A DNA stretch of 64,000 nt from Candidatus Saccharimonas sp. (GTDB taxonomy: Bacteria; Patescibacteriota; Saccharimonadia; Saccharimonadales; Saccharimonadaceae), in contig DZCW01000002.1 of the NCBI GenBank assembly GCA_022736555.1, forward strand, positions 25,070 through 89,069, read 5' to 3'. The notes beneath the pieces were generated by a model, which worked only from the letters and a program-made list of their open reading frames with translations, searched no databases and was not told where the DNA came from. Positions 6,895 to 45,814 of this stretch are shown here, piece by piece; position 1 is the first letter of the stretch; every line of letters begins with the position of its first letter. Made by a program: the position numbers and the translations under genes.

Positions 6895-8268
6895 TTACGA
6901 TTCTAATTCAGTTAGGTCTTGGTCTGTAATACCCAATTGCTCTAGTATCCATAAATGTCTAGAATTAGTTGGGTCATATTTACCGACATTAAAGCGCAAC
7001 ATTTCTTCGGGGTTATTGCGAACCACATCCCAAATGCCTATATTGCCATTTCGATAAACGATATCTTTGGTAAAACATACCCCTGGCGTTTTACAGTCGG
7101 TACCTCGAAAAGTGCGAATCGAATGGTTCCAGGCTGATGTTTGAGCTTTTTCGTGGGCTTCGAGCAGATCTTTTTTTGATTTAAGATTCTTGAATAGATA
7201 ATATTTTTCTAATACGGTATAAACTTGTCTGAAATCGCGTGGTTGCCCATCAAGGCCTAGTGACAAACCTATGGCTAGTAGTCCATCTATTCCGCGGAAA
7301 TCGTCCATCTTGTTTGCTAGTGCTTGTTCGCGCATAGTAGCAATACCTTCTTCGCCAGCTTCGTATCTATCTAGCCCTAAGCCTAATAATTTTAAACTGC
7401 TTCTCTCGCCGTTTGTACGTCTGGCTACGTGAGTGCCGATCTCGTGTACTATCAAACCAGCTAATTTAGCCCGTGTTACTGTGCGGCTTTGGGGAATATT
7501 AACCTGCATCTGTTCTTGGTCGACACTAACGGCAGTTTTACTAGATTTTTCATCTATTTCGACTCTCCAGCTATTGTCACCGGTGCGACTGAGAGCTGTC
7601 TCGAAAGCTTCTTGTATCTGGCTGGCATCTAATTTGGTTGCTTCGGATGGTATATCTATTAGATCGCCTAACTCTTTTTCGGTTTGCTTATGGGCAAATC
7701 CAATAGTTTCCGCGTTCGGTAGTTCCGGGATCTCGGGCTGATCCATAACTGGTAGTGACTGTAGTAAATCTATGGCTGCTCGGCTAGTATCTGAATTGTC
7801 TGAGCCTGTAAATTGGTTGGCCTCGGATATTATTGAATTAACGGTGTAGGCGAAAACATCAGTTGATGGTTTACCATATATAAACTCCGAATATCGCTTA
7901 AATCGGCGCATGTCATTTGCGGCCGTCGATTTTAACATCCTGATTTCAGCGATTTTTTCATTTAACCGCCAACGGTAAGCCTGTCTAACTACTTCGTTTT
8001 GCTCATTTGAAATAATGTCTTGTTTCATAGATAGCAGAGCTGACTCTGTTTTATCTATCATTTCTGGGTTGATATCTGGATAATCTAATTGGGGGTTGGA
8101 TATTTCACCAGCTAAAAATTGACGTTTTTGTTCATTTCTGAAATCACGATCACCACTTAGGTATTCATATGCCTGTAGTGAGCCATTTTCCAAAAAAGCC
8201 CCGTATAAATGCTCGTCGTAAGCTGGTTGTTCGTTTATTTGATCTGTTGGTTTTATTGTTTCTGACAT
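6895..8268 (-). CDS. DUF1704 / MATCAP-like (QEGLA-motif) putative metallocarboxypeptidase
   Basis: HExxH (VHEIGTHVARR) followed by YEAGEEGIATMREQ (QEGLA-like). Transcribed divergently from the rimB/rimK pair. The ATG at 8268 is preferred because the track TTG start at 8301 lies in a TTGACA -35. Confidence 0.6.
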   Translation of the reverse strand: MSETIKPTDQINEQPAYDEHLYGAFLENGSLQAYEYLSGDRDFRNEQKRQFLAGEISNPQLDYPDINPEMIDKTESALLSMKQDIISNEQNEVVRQAYRWRLNEKIAEIRMLKSTAANDMRRFKRYSEFIYGKPSTDVFAYTVNSIISEANQFTGSDNSDTSRAAIDLLQSLPVMDQPEIPELPNAETIGFAHKQTEKELGDLIDIPSEATKLDASQIQEAFETALSRTGDNSWRVEIDEKSSKTAVSVDQEQMQVNIPQSRTVTRAKLAGLIVHEIGTHVARRTNGERSSLKLLGLGLDRYEAGEEGIATMREQALANKMDDFRGIDGLLAIGLSLGLDGQPRDFRQVYTVLEKYYLFKNLKSKKDLLEAHEKAQTSAWNHSIRTFRGTDCKTPGVCFTKDIVYRNGNIGIWDVVRNNPEEMLRFNVGKYDPTNSRHLWILEQLGITDQDLTELES

Positions 8269-8272
8269 AACA

Positions 8273-8301
8273 TTAATATAATAACACAATATCTTTGTCA
8301 A
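8273..8301 (-). promoter_or_regulatory. Putative sigma-70-type promoter of the MATCAP-like gene
   Basis: Minus strand reads TTGACA (8301-8296), a 17-nt spacer, TATTAA (8278-8273), then 4 nt and the ATG at 8268. Confidence 0.45.
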
Positions 8302-8372
8302 TTAAAACTATTGACTAAATTGACAAAAAGTTATAATATACTACAGATAATATTTACCTTAAGGTGGACGAT

Positions 8373-8831
8373 ATGAATAGTTACAAAGAAATATTCGGAA
8401 TCTTTGAACACGTTAGCATCCCTGAGCTTGCTATCGATAATGTACTAGCCAAAATAGATACCGGTGCTTATTCTGGTGCCTTGCACTGCTCAAAAATCAA
8501 AGAGGTTATTAGGTCTGATGGTAAAAAGGTCCTACGGTTTACGCCATCAGAAAACCATACTAACAAGATCGAGATTACAAAATACGCAAAATCAAACGTT
8601 CGTAGTTCGACGGGTCATCGCGTTAAACGCTATCTATTTGACACGAATATTGTTATAAAAGGTGTAGTATATCCAATACGAATCGGTTTGTCCGACAGGT
8701 CGGATATGAATCATGAAATATTAATTGGCCGCCGATTTTTAAGAGAAAATAATATCATTGTCGATGTACGAATTAACCAAGAATTTGACACCGATGGGGA
8801 GAAAAAAAATGAAGATAGCAATCTTATCTAA
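8373..8831 (+). CDS. RimB-like retropepsin-fold protease (COG4067, 'ATP-dependent zinc protease' family)
   Basis: AKIDTGAYSGALH (D-T-G-A) and ILIGRRFL motifs. Overlaps rimK by 23 nt. AAGGTGG RBS before the ATG at 8373. Confidence 0.6.
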   Translation: MNSYKEIFGIFEHVSIPELAIDNVLAKIDTGAYSGALHCSKIKEVIRSDGKKVLRFTPSENHTNKIEITKYAKSNVRSSTGHRVKRYLFDTNIVIKGVVYPIRIGLSDRSDMNHEILIGRRFLRENNIIVDVRINQEFDTDGEKKNEDSNLI

Positions 8832-9720
8832 TGGTACCGGTAATTATTCAACTAAGCGCCTCAAAGAGGAAGCTATTTTACGTGGTCATGACGTAAAAGT
8901 CATAAAATACAAAGAATGTTACGCTTCGATCGAGCAAAGTAATCCAACTGTCAGTTATAGGGGTAGTGATCTTAGCAAATTTGATGCAATCATCCCCCGT
9001 ATCGCTTCTAGTATGACTAAATACGGCACGGCGATTGTTCGTCAGTTAGAAATGCAAGGAGTTTATACAGTTTCTAGTTCGATCGCTATTAGCCGTTCTC
9101 GCGATAAAATGCGTAGCTTGCAATTATTAGCTAAATCCGGGATTGGTATCCCAAAAACCGTAGTTTCTCGTAATACTACTGATATTGACGATCTTCTCAA
9201 CCAGTTAGGTGATATGCCTGTGATTATTAAATTGGCTCGTGGCACTCATGGTAATGGTGTAGTCTTGGCTGAAACTAAAAAGGCCGCTAAATCAGTACTT
9301 CAGGCTTTTTATCTAACTAATGATGATGGAACGAATATTCTACTACAGGAATTTATCAAGGAATCAGCCGGGACTGATATCCGTGCCTTTGTAGTTGGCA
9401 GCAGGGTTGTCGCTAGTATGAAACGGCAAAGTTTAGACGATGATTTTCGTTCAAACCTACATAAAGGCGGTGAAGGCACAACTATAAAATTAACTGAAGA
9501 GGAAAAAAAGATTGCCATTAAGGCCGCCAAAGCTATGGGGCTTAATGTTGCCGGTGTTGATCTAATGCGCAGTAGCCGTGGACCATTGATTCTAGAGGTA
9601 AATGCTAGTCCTGGATTTGGTATTGAAAAGGTTACCGGACGTAATGTTGCGGCTGAAATTATCGAATATGTCGAGATGAATGCCAAACGCCGCAATAAAA
9701 AAGACAAAGTCGGCGCATAG
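8809..9720 (+). CDS. rimK: RimK-family ATP-grasp alpha-L-glutamate ligase
   Basis: MKIAILS... start, PVIIKLARGTHGNGVVLAE, DIRAFVVG and VAGVDLMRSSRGPLILEVNASPG ATP-grasp motifs. GGGGAG RBS before the ATG at 8809. Confidence 0.85.
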   Translation: MKIAILSNGTGNYSTKRLKEEAILRGHDVKVIKYKECYASIEQSNPTVSYRGSDLSKFDAIIPRIASSMTKYGTAIVRQLEMQGVYTVSSSIAISRSRDKMRSLQLLAKSGIGIPKTVVSRNTTDIDDLLNQLGDMPVIIKLARGTHGNGVVLAETKKAAKSVLQAFYLTNDDGTNILLQEFIKESAGTDIRAFVVGSRVVASMKRQSLDDDFRSNLHKGGEGTTIKLTEEEKKIAIKAAKAMGLNVAGVDLMRSSRGPLILEVNASPGFGIEKVTGRNVAAEIIEYVEMNAKRRNKKDKVGA

Positions 9721-9749: not shown

Positions 9750-10235
9750 ATGTATATGAATACAAAAAGGAATATTGGTACGCCACTAATAGTGTCTTGT
9801 ATTGTGTTGGGCGTGTTGGCAACATTTATGTTTGTAATACCCACCATCTTTAAGCTATCTACTAATTTGCAGCTTGGCGATGGTGCGTTTAAAGCCCAAA
9901 TGGCCTTAAAAAGTAGCGATAGGGACAAGGGGTTATTGGGTACCTCTGGGTTAGACCCAGACCAGGCTTTTTTGTTGGCATTTCCTACCGAAGACAAATG
10001 GGGTGTTTGGCCTAAGAGCACGACATTCTCGATTGATATCGTTTGGTTGAATAAGGATAAAAAAGTCATTTATATAGCCAAAAATATCTCGCCTGGTAAT
10101 TTGACTTCCGCGGTGATTAAACCGAAAACTCCAGCAAAATATATAATTGAATTTCCAGCCGGTACTGTTGATAGTGAATCTATAGATATCAACCAGACGG
10201 CGGTTTTCCAAATTAATACAGACGAAATAAAGTAA
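9750..10235 (+). CDS. DUF192-family protein with N-terminal TM anchor
   Basis: DKGLLG...AFLLAFP...FSIDIVWLNKDKKVIYI...P pattern typical of DUF192 (COG1430). Confidence 0.55.
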   Translation: MYMNTKRNIGTPLIVSCIVLGVLATFMFVIPTIFKLSTNLQLGDGAFKAQMALKSSDRDKGLLGTSGLDPDQAFLLAFPTEDKWGVWPKSTTFSIDIVWLNKDKKVIYIAKNISPGNLTSAVIKPKTPAKYIIEFPAGTVDSESIDINQTAVFQINTDEIK

Positions 10236-10236
10236 T

Positions 10237-10713
10237 ATGGATGTTTTTATAGTTTATATAGTTGTTGCTGCGGTGTTATTTATCGGATCGTTCATGGCCA
10301 AACGAAGGTTTGGTTTATTGGGGCTAGCGATAGCTGCAGGCTCTATACTGAGTGGAATATGGAGTTATGGGGTAGAACTGATGGTCGGTGGCGTAGGCCT
10401 CCCATCTGGGCCATTAACAACGGCCGTGGTTCAATCGACAATTATCATATTACCAGCCGGCGTTTTGCTATTTCATGGATATACCTATAAAACATTATTC
10501 GGCAGAGTAATTGGTGCAGGATTATTTGCCATACTAGCGACGGCTTTTCTAATTGAACCACTAGGGCATGTATTGATGCCTCACGGTTTAGGCGCTAATA
10601 TTTATAGTTGGCTAGTTGATAACCGCGATATGATTATCGGTGTTGGTTTGACTTTGGCTGTGCTCGATTTATTCACCACAAAGCCAATTCAACTAGCTGA
10701 CAAAAAGCGCTAA
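10237..10713 (+). CDS. Polytopic membrane protein, unknown function
   Basis: 158 aa with 4-5 hydrophobic helices. Starts 2 nt after the previous stop. Confidence 0.5.
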   Translation: MDVFIVYIVVAAVLFIGSFMAKRRFGLLGLAIAAGSILSGIWSYGVELMVGGVGLPSGPLTTAVVQSTIIILPAGVLLFHGYTYKTLFGRVIGAGLFAILATAFLIEPLGHVLMPHGLGANIYSWLVDNRDMIIGVGLTLAVLDLFTTKPIQLADKKR

Positions 10714-10755: not shown

Positions 10756-10832
10756 GAGGTCATAGCTCAGCTGGTTAGAGCACCTGCCTTTTAAGCAGGG
10801 TGTCGTGAGTTCAAGTCTCACTGGCCTCACCA
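10756..10832 (+). tRNA. tRNA-Lys(UUU)
   Basis: Hand-folded cloverleaf with acceptor GAGGTCA/TGGCCTC and anticodon loop CTTTTAA. CCA is encoded. Confidence 0.95.
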
Positions 10833-10873
10833 AATTAAAATACCTATCGACCGATAGGTATTTTAATTTGGTG
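10828..10873 (+). terminator. Long hairpin terminator that includes the tRNA-Lys 3' CACCA
   Basis: CACCAAATTAAAATACCTAT ... ATAGGTATTTTAATTTGGTG, a perfect stem of 20 bp or more, followed by TTTTT. Confidence 0.7.
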
Positions 10874-40845: not shown

Positions 40846-41610
40846 TTAGGGTCTAAGTGTACCTGCAAATACCTGCCAAGCAAGTAGTGATTTGGCGACT
40901 AGACTTAGAATAATGTAGGCTCGTTCGCCGTATATATAATCTTTCCATGGTCCGATTTTTTTGTACTGCAAGACCATATTGATTGCGAAACAGTTAAAGA
41001 ATACAAAGATCGATACGAATATCCAATAAACGAAAGTTGGGGCGGCGCTACCATTTGCGGCACCTAGCCACATATAAAAGGCGATTACTAGCCATGGAAT
41101 TAGACCAGATAAACTGCCGATCCAAAAACTTAACCAACTAGTTTTCTTGGTTGTTTGATTGTGGACTTCCATAACCAATCCCATCAAATTCATGATAGCG
41201 GTCAGTACGAATATCATGGCGAGGCTGGCTAGATCATAAATACCAACTAGTAATGATATAGCTACCATCATTATGCTGGCAGATATCGAATATTCAATCC
41301 AGCGGGCTTTGTTGATGCCGAGTGATAAATTGCGATTATATTTTTTGTTATAAATAGTAGCAATAATCAGATGAGCGGCCGCGCATAGAAAGAAAAATAT
41401 TGCGATTAACATCGGTAACGATAAATCAAACAAGAGTTTAGTTGTCGGCTCCAGACTCTGCGAACTGGCATTAAAAGTTAGATAATTACCGCTAATAGGT
41501 AATGTGAACGCCTTGCTGAGGATTAATATTATTACTCCCTGTGCTAAATGCAAAAAACCCATCGTTAGATTAAATTTGCGTAAACTAGTTGTTGTAATTT
41601 TGTTTGTCAT
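40846..41610 (-). CDS. Heliorhodopsin
   Basis: 7-TM, 254 aa. Carries LRKFNLTMGFLHLAQG, AAAHLII, RWIEYSISASIMMV (counter-ion Glu position), and GERAYIILSLVAKSLLAWQVFAGTL (Schiff-base Lys in TM7). These match the heliorhodopsin 48C12/TaHeR pattern recalled from the literature. Confidence 0.85.
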   Translation of the reverse strand: MTNKITTTSLRKFNLTMGFLHLAQGVIILILSKAFTLPISGNYLTFNASSQSLEPTTKLLFDLSLPMLIAIFFFLCAAAHLIIATIYNKKYNRNLSLGINKARWIEYSISASIMMVAISLLVGIYDLASLAMIFVLTAIMNLMGLVMEVHNQTTKKTSWLSFWIGSLSGLIPWLVIAFYMWLGAANGSAAPTFVYWIFVSIFVFFNCFAINMVLQYKKIGPWKDYIYGERAYIILSLVAKSLLAWQVFAGTLRP

Positions 41611-43907: not shown

Positions 43908-44288
43908 GTGAGAACTGGTATACTAGTTATAGTTATGGATTTAAATAAATATATCGTTAGTGATAATACAGGCAAGCCGTTTCATAGTAGCGGAATTGCC
44001 AGAATTAACAGAGGCGATAGGTTGGGCGTAGATACTAATGTATCATTTAATCAACGGCAACAAATCAACGGCAATCGACAATTAATTAATGATTATCACA
44101 GTTCTGTAATAGGTAATACTCGTAGTGTTTTGGCCGCCAGGCCAGTTAGCCCGGAAGCGATAGATAGTCGTTTAAGGGTGCCAGCTAGACAGCCAATCCA
44201 AAATCCTCGTAATACTACGCAGGGTATAACTATACCGCCACGTAGTTTTAACGAGCCTAATGCCAGAGGCTATAACCCTTACTCCTAG
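43908..44288 (+). CDS. Hypothetical small Arg/Asn/Gln-rich protein
   Basis: 126-aa ORF from a GTG start (an alternative ATG lies at 43935). No motif recognised. Its stop overlaps the murA stop in CTAG. Confidence 0.4.
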   Translation: MRTGILVIVMDLNKYIVSDNTGKPFHSSGIARINRGDRLGVDTNVSFNQRQQINGNRQLINDYHSSVIGNTRSVLAARPVSPEAIDSRLRVPARQPIQNPRNTTQGITIPPRSFNEPNARGYNPYS

Positions 44289-45814
44289 ATCTCGCGGAAT
44301 GTTTCAATATCAGCGCCTAAAGTATTTAGACGATTAGCGAAATCTTCATACCCACGGTTTATCGAATAAACATTTCGTAGTATCGAATGACCAGGTGCGG
44401 CCAGCATCGCTAGCATTATAACAACAGATGGGCGTAGGGCTGGAGGTGTTACTATATCGGCCGGTTTCCATTTGGTTGGTCCGGTAATATAAACACGATG
44501 TGGGTCGACTAGCTCGATATTAGCGTTCAATTTACTAAGTTCGGTGAAATAAATAGCTCGGTTTTCGTATGACCAGTCGTGAACCATGGTTCGGCCATTA
44601 GCCACAGTGGCAATCAATCCTAGGAAGGGCAAGTTGTCCATATTTACGCCCGGGAATGGCATACTGTGTAATTTGTCCTTGGGCGCATTTAGCTTTGAAT
44701 GGAGCACGGTGATGTCTACTAGGCGCGTTTCATTATTACGAGCCTTATATTCGTCGCTTATATTATATTGCAAACCCATGCTACTGAGGATGGATAATTC
44801 TATTTCGATGAATTCAATCGGCGCACGTTTGACGGTAATTTCAGAATTAGTGACTATACCGGCTGCGATTAAGCTCATGGCCTCGATCGGGTCTTCGCTA
44901 ATATAATATTCGACATTTTTATTAATACTACGAACACCACGGATGACTAGGGTGGTTGTTCCAATACCATCGATCTTGACACCTAATTTTTGTAAATAAA
45001 AACACAAATCTTGAACCATGTAATTTGGACTGGCATTACGGATAGTAATTGTGCCGTCGTAAAGGGCAGCGGCCATTAGAACATTTTCGGTAGCGGTATC
45101 GCTACGTTCAGTTAGTAATATGGTATGGTCGACGGTTTTTTTGGTGACAGTAGCGTTATAATACTCTGATTTGGTCTCGATACTTAAACCGAACGGTGCC
45201 AAACCAGCTAGATGGGGTTCGACAGTTCTAACGCCCAGGTTACACCCGCCAGCGAACGGTAATTTAAATTCTCGGTACTGGTGTAATAGAGGGCCAAGCA
45301 GCATGATGATCGTTCGTGTGCGTTTAGCTGAATCGATATTCATATCGTTCAGTTTTAATCTGGCTGGCGGGATAATTTCTAGATCGTTTTTATCATTTAA
45401 CCAGCGAATTTTAACGCCAATACTCTGCAGGACTTCGATAATTCGATTAACCTCTTCGATCCTAGCGACACGTCGTAGGGTTGTTGTGCCGTGGTTCAAT
45501 AAGCTAGCACAAAGTAGTCCAACCGCAGCATTTTTGCTGGTTTTTACTTCGATTTCACCGGATAGTTTTTTGCCACCATTAATACGAAAGTCGATTTTAC
45601 CTGATTGGTTCAAACTAACAAGTTCACTTGACAAAACGTCGCTAATACGGGCCAGCATCTCAAGGCTGATATTTTGTCCACCTTTTTCAATACGATTTAT
45701 AGCACTTTGGCTAGTGCTAAGCGCTTCGGCTAGCTGGGCCTGAGTTAGCCCACGTGATTGTCTGTTCTCTTGAATTAATGTACCGATTTTAACTTTGTAA
45801 TCATCATTCGTCAT
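44285..45814 (-). CDS. murA: XRE-type HTH domain fused to UDP-N-acetylglucosamine 1-carboxyvinyltransferase (MurA)
   Basis: Residues 1-65 read IQENRQSRGLTQAQLAEALSTSQSAINRIEKGGQNISLEMLARI (HTH_3-like). The MurA body follows from KIDFRINGGKKLSGEIEVKTSKNAA, with the active-site loop FAGGCNLGVRTVEPH. No internal start codon at the junction. Confidence 0.85.
   Translation of the reverse strand: MTNDDYKVKIGTLIQENRQSRGLTQAQLAEALSTSQSAINRIEKGGQNISLEMLARISDVLSSELVSLNQSGKIDFRINGGKKLSGEIEVKTSKNAAVGLLCASLLNHGTTTLRRVARIEEVNRIIEVLQSIGVKIRWLNDKNDLEIIPPARLKLNDMNIDSAKRTRTIIMLLGPLLHQYREFKLPFAGGCNLGVRTVEPHLAGLAPFGLSIETKSEYYNATVTKKTVDHTILLTERSDTATENVLMAAALYDGTITIRNASPNYMVQDLCFYLQKLGVKIDGIGTTTLVIRGVRSINKNVEYYISEDPIEAMSLIAAGIVTNSEITVKRAPIEFIEIELSILSSMGLQYNISDEYKARNNETRLVDITVLHSKLNAPKDKLHSMPFPGVNMDNLPFLGLIATVANGRTMVHDWSYENRAIYFTELSKLNANIELVDPHRVYITGPTKWKPADIVTPPALRPSVVIMLAMLAAPGHSILRNVYSINRGYEDFANRLNTLGADIETFREI

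Follow-up and report, generated by a model that had tools for sequence, protein, structure and literature searches.

A MATCAP/DUF1704-family metallopeptidase gene recurrently linked to rimB and rimK in Saccharibacteria

The DNA analysed in this work (the window) is a stretch of 64,000 nucleotides from a Candidatus Saccharimonas sp. genome (GenBank assembly GCA_022736555.1, contig DZCW01000002.1, positions 25,070 to 89,069 of the forward strand). It carries a gene for a RimB-like retropepsin-fold peptidase followed by a gene for the alpha-L-glutamate ligase RimK, and next to them, on the other strand, a gene for a zinc metallopeptidase of the MATCAP (formerly DUF1704) family, the family of human tubulin carboxypeptidases. 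The three enzymes together make up a new variant of the RimK/RimB system already known. Members of the same peptidase family were found beside RimK-superfamily ligases in several gene architectures, and this linkage is non-random yet not obligatory.

Results

The RimK and RimB-like proteins

The three open reading frames (ORFs) lie at the positions and on the strands given in the initial annotation, which had been made from the sequence alone, and the 23-nt overlap between rimB and rimK (8809-8831) is seen both in the ORF listing and in the public gene calls on JGI and Logan contigs of 99% identity. Because they are long and have highly significant profile matches, the three ORFs are well beyond chance. 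The ORF of the MATCAP-like protein starts with the ATG at 8268 (MSETIKP), where its homologues and the public gene calls begin; a longer version starting with a TTG at 8301 was supported by neither and was discarded.

The product of the 303-codon ORF, annotated initially as a RimK ATP-grasp ligase, proved to be one at equivalog level. It scored 344.7 bits with the S6-glutamate ligase equivalog model NF007764 (cutoff 331; the range at related loci was 343.8-384.2 bits), and its matches to PF08443 (E=2e-61) and PF18030 (E=2e-35) define the pre-ATP-grasp plus ATP-grasp architecture. Over its full length it matched the solved Pseudomonas and E. coli RimK proteins (7qyr, E=2.7e-95; 4iwx, E=7e-90).

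The RimB-like protein matched PF05618 (E=2.5e-17, 63.5 bits, cutoff 27) and resembles the solved PF05618 proteins 9g59, 9g58 and 2pma. Aspartate D29 of its DTGA motif is the counterpart of D31, which is catalytic in P. fluorescens RimB (PMC11957791). The best-scoring NCBIfam model was the RimB equivalog NF052261, ahead of RloA1-3, with a score of 64.8 bits that is far under the cutoff of 200. The initial description as a RimB-like protein with a D-T-G-A motif can thus be kept, whereas RimB equivalog level is not reached. As read from the sequence, the N-terminus MNSYKEIFGIFEHVSIPE contains no hydrophobic signal region, unlike that of the secreted RloA. Through the 23-nt overlap the RimB-like protein is translationally coupled to RimK.

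Family, motifs and fold of the MATCAP-like protein

The 457-residue minus-strand protein matched Pfam PF08014 (MATCAP) with E=3.4e-28 and 99.1 bits (cutoff 27), in agreement with its earlier assignment to DUF1704/MATCAP; significant matches to PF08014, PF05618 and RimK models were therefore obtained for all three proteins. The match to TIGR02421, the model of the proteobacterial QEGLA proteins (E=6.4e-24, 84.9 bits), stayed below the equivalog cutoff of 338.65, which makes the protein a member of a related subfamily rather than an equivalog. More than 500 homologues were found, mostly in Patescibacteria; the nearest contigs and homologues come from Candidatus Saccharibacteria and other Patescibacteria, and the profile of this lineage, called here type A, matches about 2,700 clusters at 50% identity.

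A profile built from 14 homologues retrieved human MATCAP among all PDB sequences. In the profile alignment the HEIGTH motif pairs with HEIGTH and the EEGIA motif with EEGLA of human MATCAP, and the two sides have an RGTD...F(T/S)KD...Y block in common. Both motifs are located where they had been annotated; the label HExxH given to the first of them had to be replaced, the motif being HExxxH, the atypical motif of the MATCAP/TMCP enzymes, for which the EEG motif has also been described, in TMCP1 (PMC10499314). Among the 14 aligned homologues E276 and H280 are invariant and H275 is nearly so, and the catalytic motifs of the window protein are intact. The arginine of HExxxHxxR is conserved throughout the family and is uninformative on specificity. 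One Saccharibacteria homologue (P0049) has EEIATH in place of HEIGTH, with loss of the first zinc-binding histidine, and may be an inactive variant.

The AlphaFold2 (AF2) model of the MATCAP-like protein has a mean predicted local distance difference test score (pLDDT) of 82.7 and a predicted template modelling score (pTM) of 0.83. In a Foldseek search with this model the top four PDB matches were human MATCAP entries (7z5g/7z6s, E=7e-6 to 2e-5, probability 1.00), and they were followed by DUF885 and by M32- and M2-type metallocarboxypeptidases. Neither a signal peptide nor a transmembrane segment could be read from the sequence, thus the protein is presumably cytoplasmic.

Neighbours of MATCAP-like genes

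For a forward test of the linkage, 80 loci encoding relatives of the MATCAP-like protein were fetched, one genome per species, and their ORFs were searched with profiles seeded from the RimK and the RimB-like protein of the window. The counts refer to the 77 loci of Patescibacteria species that carry a MATCAP-like gene. Three quarters of the ATP-grasp ORFs (75/100) and a similar share of the retropepsin domains (29/38) were located upstream of the MATCAP-like gene at a distance of no more than 4 kb. Beyond 4 kb upstream there were at most 3 ATP-grasp ORFs per 2-kb bin, and on the downstream side the numbers per bin fell from 9 to 0. Where at least 5 kb of sequence was available on both sides (50 loci), a ligase was nearby in 35 cases, in 28 of them together with a retropepsin and in 7 without one, and 15 loci had neither. 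These gene contexts are scattered over the neighbour-joining tree of the MATCAP-like proteins.

The first of the architectures, found in Saccharibacteria, consists of an equivalog-level RimK and a separate or hybrid RimB beside the MATCAP-like gene. An adjacent RimK (357-384 bits with NF007764) and RimB were encoded divergently from the peptidase in loci L004 and L005 and in the same direction in L038, L054 and L072, and in L054 the genes are separated by no more than 28 and 8 nt. Mur-ligase and membrane-protein genes between the MATCAP-like gene and rimB (L038 and L072) were regarded as a sign of the variability of this slot and rejected as components of the system. At two loci, RimB-ATP-grasp hybrids of 449-460 residues (L005:8471-9853, minus strand; L149:6652-8001, plus strand) stand beside a separate full RimK. 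These Saccharibacteria loci match a rare class that Little et al. (2025) have reported as 'rimBK plus an extra rimK'.

The rimK loci of Saccharibacteria

The reverse test started from RimK: we took 80 metagenomic loci of Saccharibacteria that encode a RimK with 83-93% identity to that of the window. Their gene order is conserved (dnaJ-[variable slot]-rimB-rimK-DUF192-membrane protein-comEC), and a retropepsin gene is located directly 5' of rimK wherever the sequence reaches, that is at essentially all 80 loci. Upstream sequence of 3 kb or more was available at 53 loci, and at 20 of these the slot between dnaJ and rimB contains a gene of a second MATCAP-family lineage, called here type B. It is on the same strand as rimBK and is often followed by an extra ATP-grasp gene. 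Type B proteins are 24-31% identical to the MATCAP-like protein of the window, pass the PF08014 threshold and retain HExxxH and EEG; by hhalign, types A and B are full-length homologues (probability 100, E=6e-51, 405 columns, 24% identity). These placements show that the position beside rimBK is shared by two lineages that have diverged within the family, and that both orientations occur.

At some rimK loci of Saccharibacteria (L093:5716-8004 and L105:5723-7999) the separate rimB is replaced by a gene for a protein of about 760 residues, which starts with a RimK-like ATP-grasp domain, matches DUF3541 weakly in the middle and ends with a retropepsin domain (DSGA motif). At both loci a gene of 363-374 codons without annotation lies 5' of this fusion gene.

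Architectures outside the Saccharibacteria

A different architecture was found in Moraniibacteria and related Patescibacteria. The operon (L046:5300-13600; also L016, L024, L027, L040, L042, L048, and further L056, L062, L067, L078 and others) starts with a 7TM_transglut gene, RloB-like and limited to the seven-transmembrane (7TM) part, and continues with a gene for a TIGR02291/ATPgrasp_ST ligase-retropepsin fusion, one to three RimK-like ligases, YdjC/GT4/GNAT genes, the MATCAP-like gene and PBP1a. The fusion, in which the retropepsin is C-terminal, is a RloC-RloA fusion, and the MATCAP-like proteins are type A orthologues (43-50% identical). RloB-like 7TM genes were confined to loci of this type. 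RloB has been reported as 96% proteobacterial (mBio 2025 Rlo paper); the operons thus extend Rlo-like cassettes to bacteria of the Candidate Phyla Radiation (CPR) and add a metallopeptidase to them.

The ATP-grasp ligases of about 318 residues encoded in these operons (L046:7451-8404 and 16 homologues) all match Pfam RimK, and 14 of the 17 also match TTL (PF03133, best E=7e-11) and YheC/D models. Membership in the TTL family was rejected, the matches being too weak and RimK always the better one; such TTL matches next to a MATCAP-like gene are suggestive.

In Proteobacteria the ATP-grasp partner is another one. Rhizobial plasmids carry an operon of N-formylglutamate amidohydrolase, a QEGLA/DUF1704 protein and a 'glutathione synthetase' (GshB-like) ATP-grasp protein, and in Photobacterium damselae low salinity induces the QEGLA gene, an adjacent 'GshB' gene and RimK (PMC10308900). 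These cases indicate that DUF1704 peptidases are paired with ATP-grasp amide ligases more widely than in the lineage of the window. The gene neighbourhood described in the initial annotation is kept in related genomes, recurs in several independent architectures and is found in Proteobacteria with another ATP-grasp partner.

Layout of the locus and other genes of the window

The coordinates of the features are collected in Table 1. The intergenic region between the MATCAP-like gene and rimB contains a perfect 10-nt inverted repeat (TTTGTCAATT at 8294-8303 and AATTGACAAA at 8318-8327). It was considered as a possible operator and is equally readable as two back-to-back TTGACA -35 boxes; in L004 and L005 it is kept only partly. 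A putative rimB promoter, TTGACT(8311)-N16-TATAAT(8333), matches the consensus, and a Shine-Dalgarno sequence (AAGGTGG, 8361-8367) precedes the rimB-like gene. No Shine-Dalgarno sequence was found before the ATG of the MATCAP-like gene, which lies about 5 nt 3' of a -10-like TATTAA; these two features suggest that the mRNA of this gene may be leaderless.

Downstream, the genes for a DUF192 protein and a 158-residue membrane protein (TM158), syntenic 3' of rimK throughout the Saccharibacteria, are probably co-transcribed with rimBK, and the hairpin beyond them probably terminates transcription of the rimB-rimK-DUF192-membrane protein unit. Both genes were rejected as parts of the system: they have no informative annotation (TM158 had no Pfam or NCBIfam match), and loci of the L038, L054 and L072 type are without DUF192.

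Table 1. Coordinates of the features of the locus and of two further genes of the window
Feature	Position	Strand	Description
MATCAP/DUF1704-family zinc metallopeptidase gene, type A	6895-8268	-	457 aa; PF08014
EEGIA motif of the MATCAP-like protein	7339-7353	-	E306-E307-G308; predicted third zinc ligand
HEIGTH motif of the MATCAP-like protein	7429-7446	-	HExxxH zinc-binding/catalytic motif (H275, E276, H280)
Divergent intergenic region, MATCAP-like gene / rimB	8269-8372		104 bp
RimB-like retropepsin-fold aspartic peptidase gene	8373-8831	+	152 aa; PF05618
DTGA motif of the RimB-like protein	8457-8468	+	catalytic motif
RimK alpha-L-glutamate ligase gene	8809-9720	+	303 aa; PF18030 + PF08443
DUF192 protein gene	9750-10235	+	
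Membrane protein gene (TM158)	10237-10713	+	158 aa
Hairpin	10828-10873	+	20-bp perfect stem, 4-6 nt loop, then T-run
Heliorhodopsin gene	40846-41610	-	254 aa; PF18761
XRE-type helix-turn-helix + EPSP-synthase/MurA-family fusion gene	44285-45814	-	509 aa; PF01381 + PF00275

Among the window ORFs of at least 90 codons none has 4 or more acidic residues among the last 6, thus no alternative substrate to bS6 is evident locally. Two other genes of the window may be mentioned. One encodes a heliorhodopsin (PF18761, E=4e-98). The other encodes a fusion of an XRE-type helix-turn-helix (PF01381, residues 14-62) with a full EPSP-synthase/MurA-family domain (PF00275, residues 79-496), which is an unusual domain combination.

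Discussion

Proposed role of the MATCAP-like protein

Members of the MATCAP family recur beside RimK-superfamily ligases in several architectures, and this leads to a concrete hypothesis for DUF1704 proteins, the trimming of C-terminal amino-acid tails, probably of glutamate. In the proposed scheme the locus would encode a three-enzyme system that makes and removes alpha-linked glutamate tails. The writer would be RimK, the ATP-grasp ligase. The RimB-like retropepsin would serve, as in Pseudomonas, as an endo-acting eraser and as an activator of the ligase, and would cut only runs of about 5-6 or more glutamates. The MATCAP-like protein (HExxxH...EEG) would be the exo-acting eraser, a carboxypeptidase removing single residues from the free C-terminus, and could thereby trim tails that are too short for RimB; alternatively, it might break down to glutamate the oligo- or poly-glutamate that RimB releases or RimK makes.

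Such a role is chemically plausible in view of the published biochemistry of the MATCAP/TMCP enzymes and of RimB (PMC10499314, PMC11957791). RimK adds alpha-linked glutamates to the C-terminus of bS6 and also makes free poly-alpha-glutamate (PMC11957791). RimB is a retropepsin-like endopeptidase which removes glutamates from polyglutamylated RpsF, needs at least 5-6 contiguous glutamates and stimulates RimK (PMC11957791). The MATCAP/TMCP carboxypeptidases take off C-terminal tyrosine and glutamate and shorten the polyglutamate chains made by TTLL enzymes (PMC10499314). 'One writer, two erasers', the formula of the initial annotation, is a well-motivated inference. What we infer for this locus is that the MATCAP-like protein acts as a carboxypeptidase, that it is specific for glutamate, that its substrate is bS6, and that an endo- and an exo-acting enzyme divide the work. 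From the analysis as a whole, we give about an even chance to the MATCAP-like protein being a zinc carboxypeptidase of the cytoplasm which complements RimB by trimming tails or oligomers of alpha-glutamate.

Several observations weigh against this role. In the window the MATCAP-like gene is transcribed divergently from rimBK. A MATCAP-like gene is missing from about 60% of the rimBK loci (33/53), and about 30% of the fully flanked MATCAP-like loci (15/50) have no ligase within 5 kb; the ligase-free loci include L006 and L007, the closest Saccharibacteria relatives. Shared descent in Saccharibacteria and in Moraniibacteria inflates the raw counts. The superposition of the model on MATCAP is moderate (TM-score 0.33-0.52), and in the literature searched there were no activity data for any bacterial DUF1704 protein. 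Searches by tblastn and by hidden Markov models (HMMs), for which bS6 of E. coli, B. subtilis and T. thermophilus served as query, found no rpsF, the gene for bS6, in the window or in the 165 fetched loci. In Moraniibacteria, the MATCAP-like genes stand in operons with RloC/RloA-like fusions, YdjC, GT4 and PBP1a, and such company suggests that the substrate is something other than bS6, in these lineages at least.

The operons just mentioned, like the proteobacterial ones, favour a second explanation, in which the MATCAP-like protein is a general partner of ATP-grasp ligases that is not bound to bS6. It would hydrolyse products of RimK-, RloC- or GshB-like ligases, whether small peptides or metabolites and envelope components that carry peptides, for instance free poly-alpha-glutamate or an amino-acid conjugate, and its place beside rimBK in the window would be one expression of this wider role. 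Type A orthologues in Rlo-like operons, the proteobacterial QEGLA gene between those for formylglutamate amidohydrolase and a GshB-like ligase, the RimB-stimulated synthesis of free poly-alpha-glutamate by RimK and the influence of the Rlo system on envelope phenotypes (PMC12239564) would all fit. However, the sole ligase adjacent to the peptidase gene in the window and in its Saccharibacteria relatives is an equivalog-level RimK, and the window has no RloB-like gene, TM158 being without a Pfam match. Where the substrate is poly-alpha-glutamate, this explanation overlaps with the proposed role as an eraser. We consider this second explanation unlikely.

The peptidase could also act ahead of the writer instead of as an eraser. 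It would then strip one or a few encoded residues other than glutamate from the C-terminus of bS6 or another target and expose a glutamate for RimK, much as detyrosination of tubulin exposes glutamate. MATCAP/TMCP enzymes do remove C-terminal tyrosine and other residues besides glutamate (PMC10499314), the linkage data fit equally, and a gene that is present in some lineages and absent from others would suit lineage-specific C-termini of bS6. Against such a priming role, many RimK loci have no MATCAP-like gene, and the ligases to which the family members in Moraniibacteria are linked are no orthologues of RimK; we regard it as quite improbable.

Equally improbable in our estimate is that the gene is a neighbour by descent, i.e. 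an unrelated housekeeping peptidase in a variable slot whose adjacency to rimB has no functional meaning: its divergent transcription in the window, the variable dnaJ-rimB interval, which in some relatives holds Mur-ligase, membrane-protein or other genes, and the many MATCAP-like loci without a ligase would agree with this, but the slot is filled by two diverged lineages of one family (24% identical) in both orientations, ligases are sharply enriched within 4 kb relative to the farther bins of the same loci, and independent architectures exist in Moraniibacteria and Proteobacteria. For a gene that occurs about once in a genome of about 1 Mb, the typical size in CPR bacteria, adjacency within 4 kb would arise by chance with a probability under 1%.

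The locus is the clearest available lead to the function of the bacterial MATCAP/DUF1704 proteins. If the eraser role is true, ultra-small CPR bacteria have a third component of the Rim system of ribosome modification that has gone undescribed, and it would in itself be notable that a reduced genome keeps a regulatory circuit of this kind. The pairing would mirror that of TTL/TTLL writers with MATCAP/TMCP erasers, and would offer a prokaryotic model and a possible evolutionary antecedent of the tubulin code. A still wider reading can be put forward tentatively, as possible though doubtful: that MATCAP-family carboxypeptidases are ancient bacterial erasers which partner ATP-grasp peptide-tail ligases (RimK-, RloC- and GshB-like), that the eukaryotic pair of TTL/TTLL and MATCAP/TMCP descends from or recapitulates a bacterial writer-eraser cassette, and that the Saccharibacteria cassette tunes a glutamate tail on a ribosomal protein with endo- and exo-acting erasers.

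Comparison with known systems

In the literature searched, no paper joined RimK with MATCAP/KIAA0895 or with Saccharibacteria, an earlier note of the general association being possible, and DUF1704 had one incidental mention. The closest known system is the RimK-RimB(-RimA) system of Pseudomonas (PMC4741518, PMC7343187, PMC11957791). The window shares with it an equivalog-level, full-length RimK and, directly 5' of rimK and overlapping it, the gene of a PF05618 DTG retropepsin without signal peptide. It differs in that no RimA (EAL) gene is located near rimK, the RimB-like protein scores far under the RimB equivalog cutoff, the host is a reduced-genome Saccharibacterium, and a MATCAP-family metallopeptidase, which appears in no Rim paper of the literature searched, is added.

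RloABC of Pseudomonas aeruginosa (PMC12239564) is likewise a cassette of a retropepsin and an ATP-grasp ligase, and no MATCAP-like component has been described for it (PMC12239564). In the window, by contrast, no gene for RloB (7TM plus inactive transglutaminase) is adjacent and the retropepsin lacks a signal peptide. The Rlo-like operons of Moraniibacteria contain orthologues of the window protein that belong to type A.

The proteobacterial QEGLA proteins (TIGR02421) belong to the same superfamily as the window protein, with HExxxH and (Q/E)EG(L/I)A, and are likewise in operons with an ATP-grasp ligase. Their partners are a GshB-like ligase and formylglutamate amidohydrolase, whereas those in the window are RimK and RimB, and the QEGLA protein of the rhizobial plasmids is longer (617 residues versus 457).

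Fold and catalytic motif of the CCP/Nna1 (M14) tubulin deglutamylases are unrelated to those of the MATCAP family, and the likeness is functional only. Their chemistry, exo-removal of C-terminal alpha-linked glutamate (PMC10499314), is the same as that proposed here.

With the human enzymes MATCAP1/TMCP1 (KIAA0895L) and MATCAP2/TMCP2 (KIAA0895) the window protein shares PF08014, an identical HEIGTH motif, EEG and the RGTD...F(T/S)KD...Y block. Identity to human MATCAP is about 16-18% and the TM-scores are moderate, and the window protein has an N-terminal helical region of about 215 residues which is covered by the QEGLA model and poorly by the MATCAP crystal construct. In a bacterium that has no tubulin, and in a protein with no evidence of microtubule-binding regions, the substrate must differ from that of MATCAP. 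The MATCAP/TMCP enzymes undo the work of the ATP-grasp TTL/TTLL ligases, and it is this relationship that the proposed pairing of the window protein with RimK would parallel.

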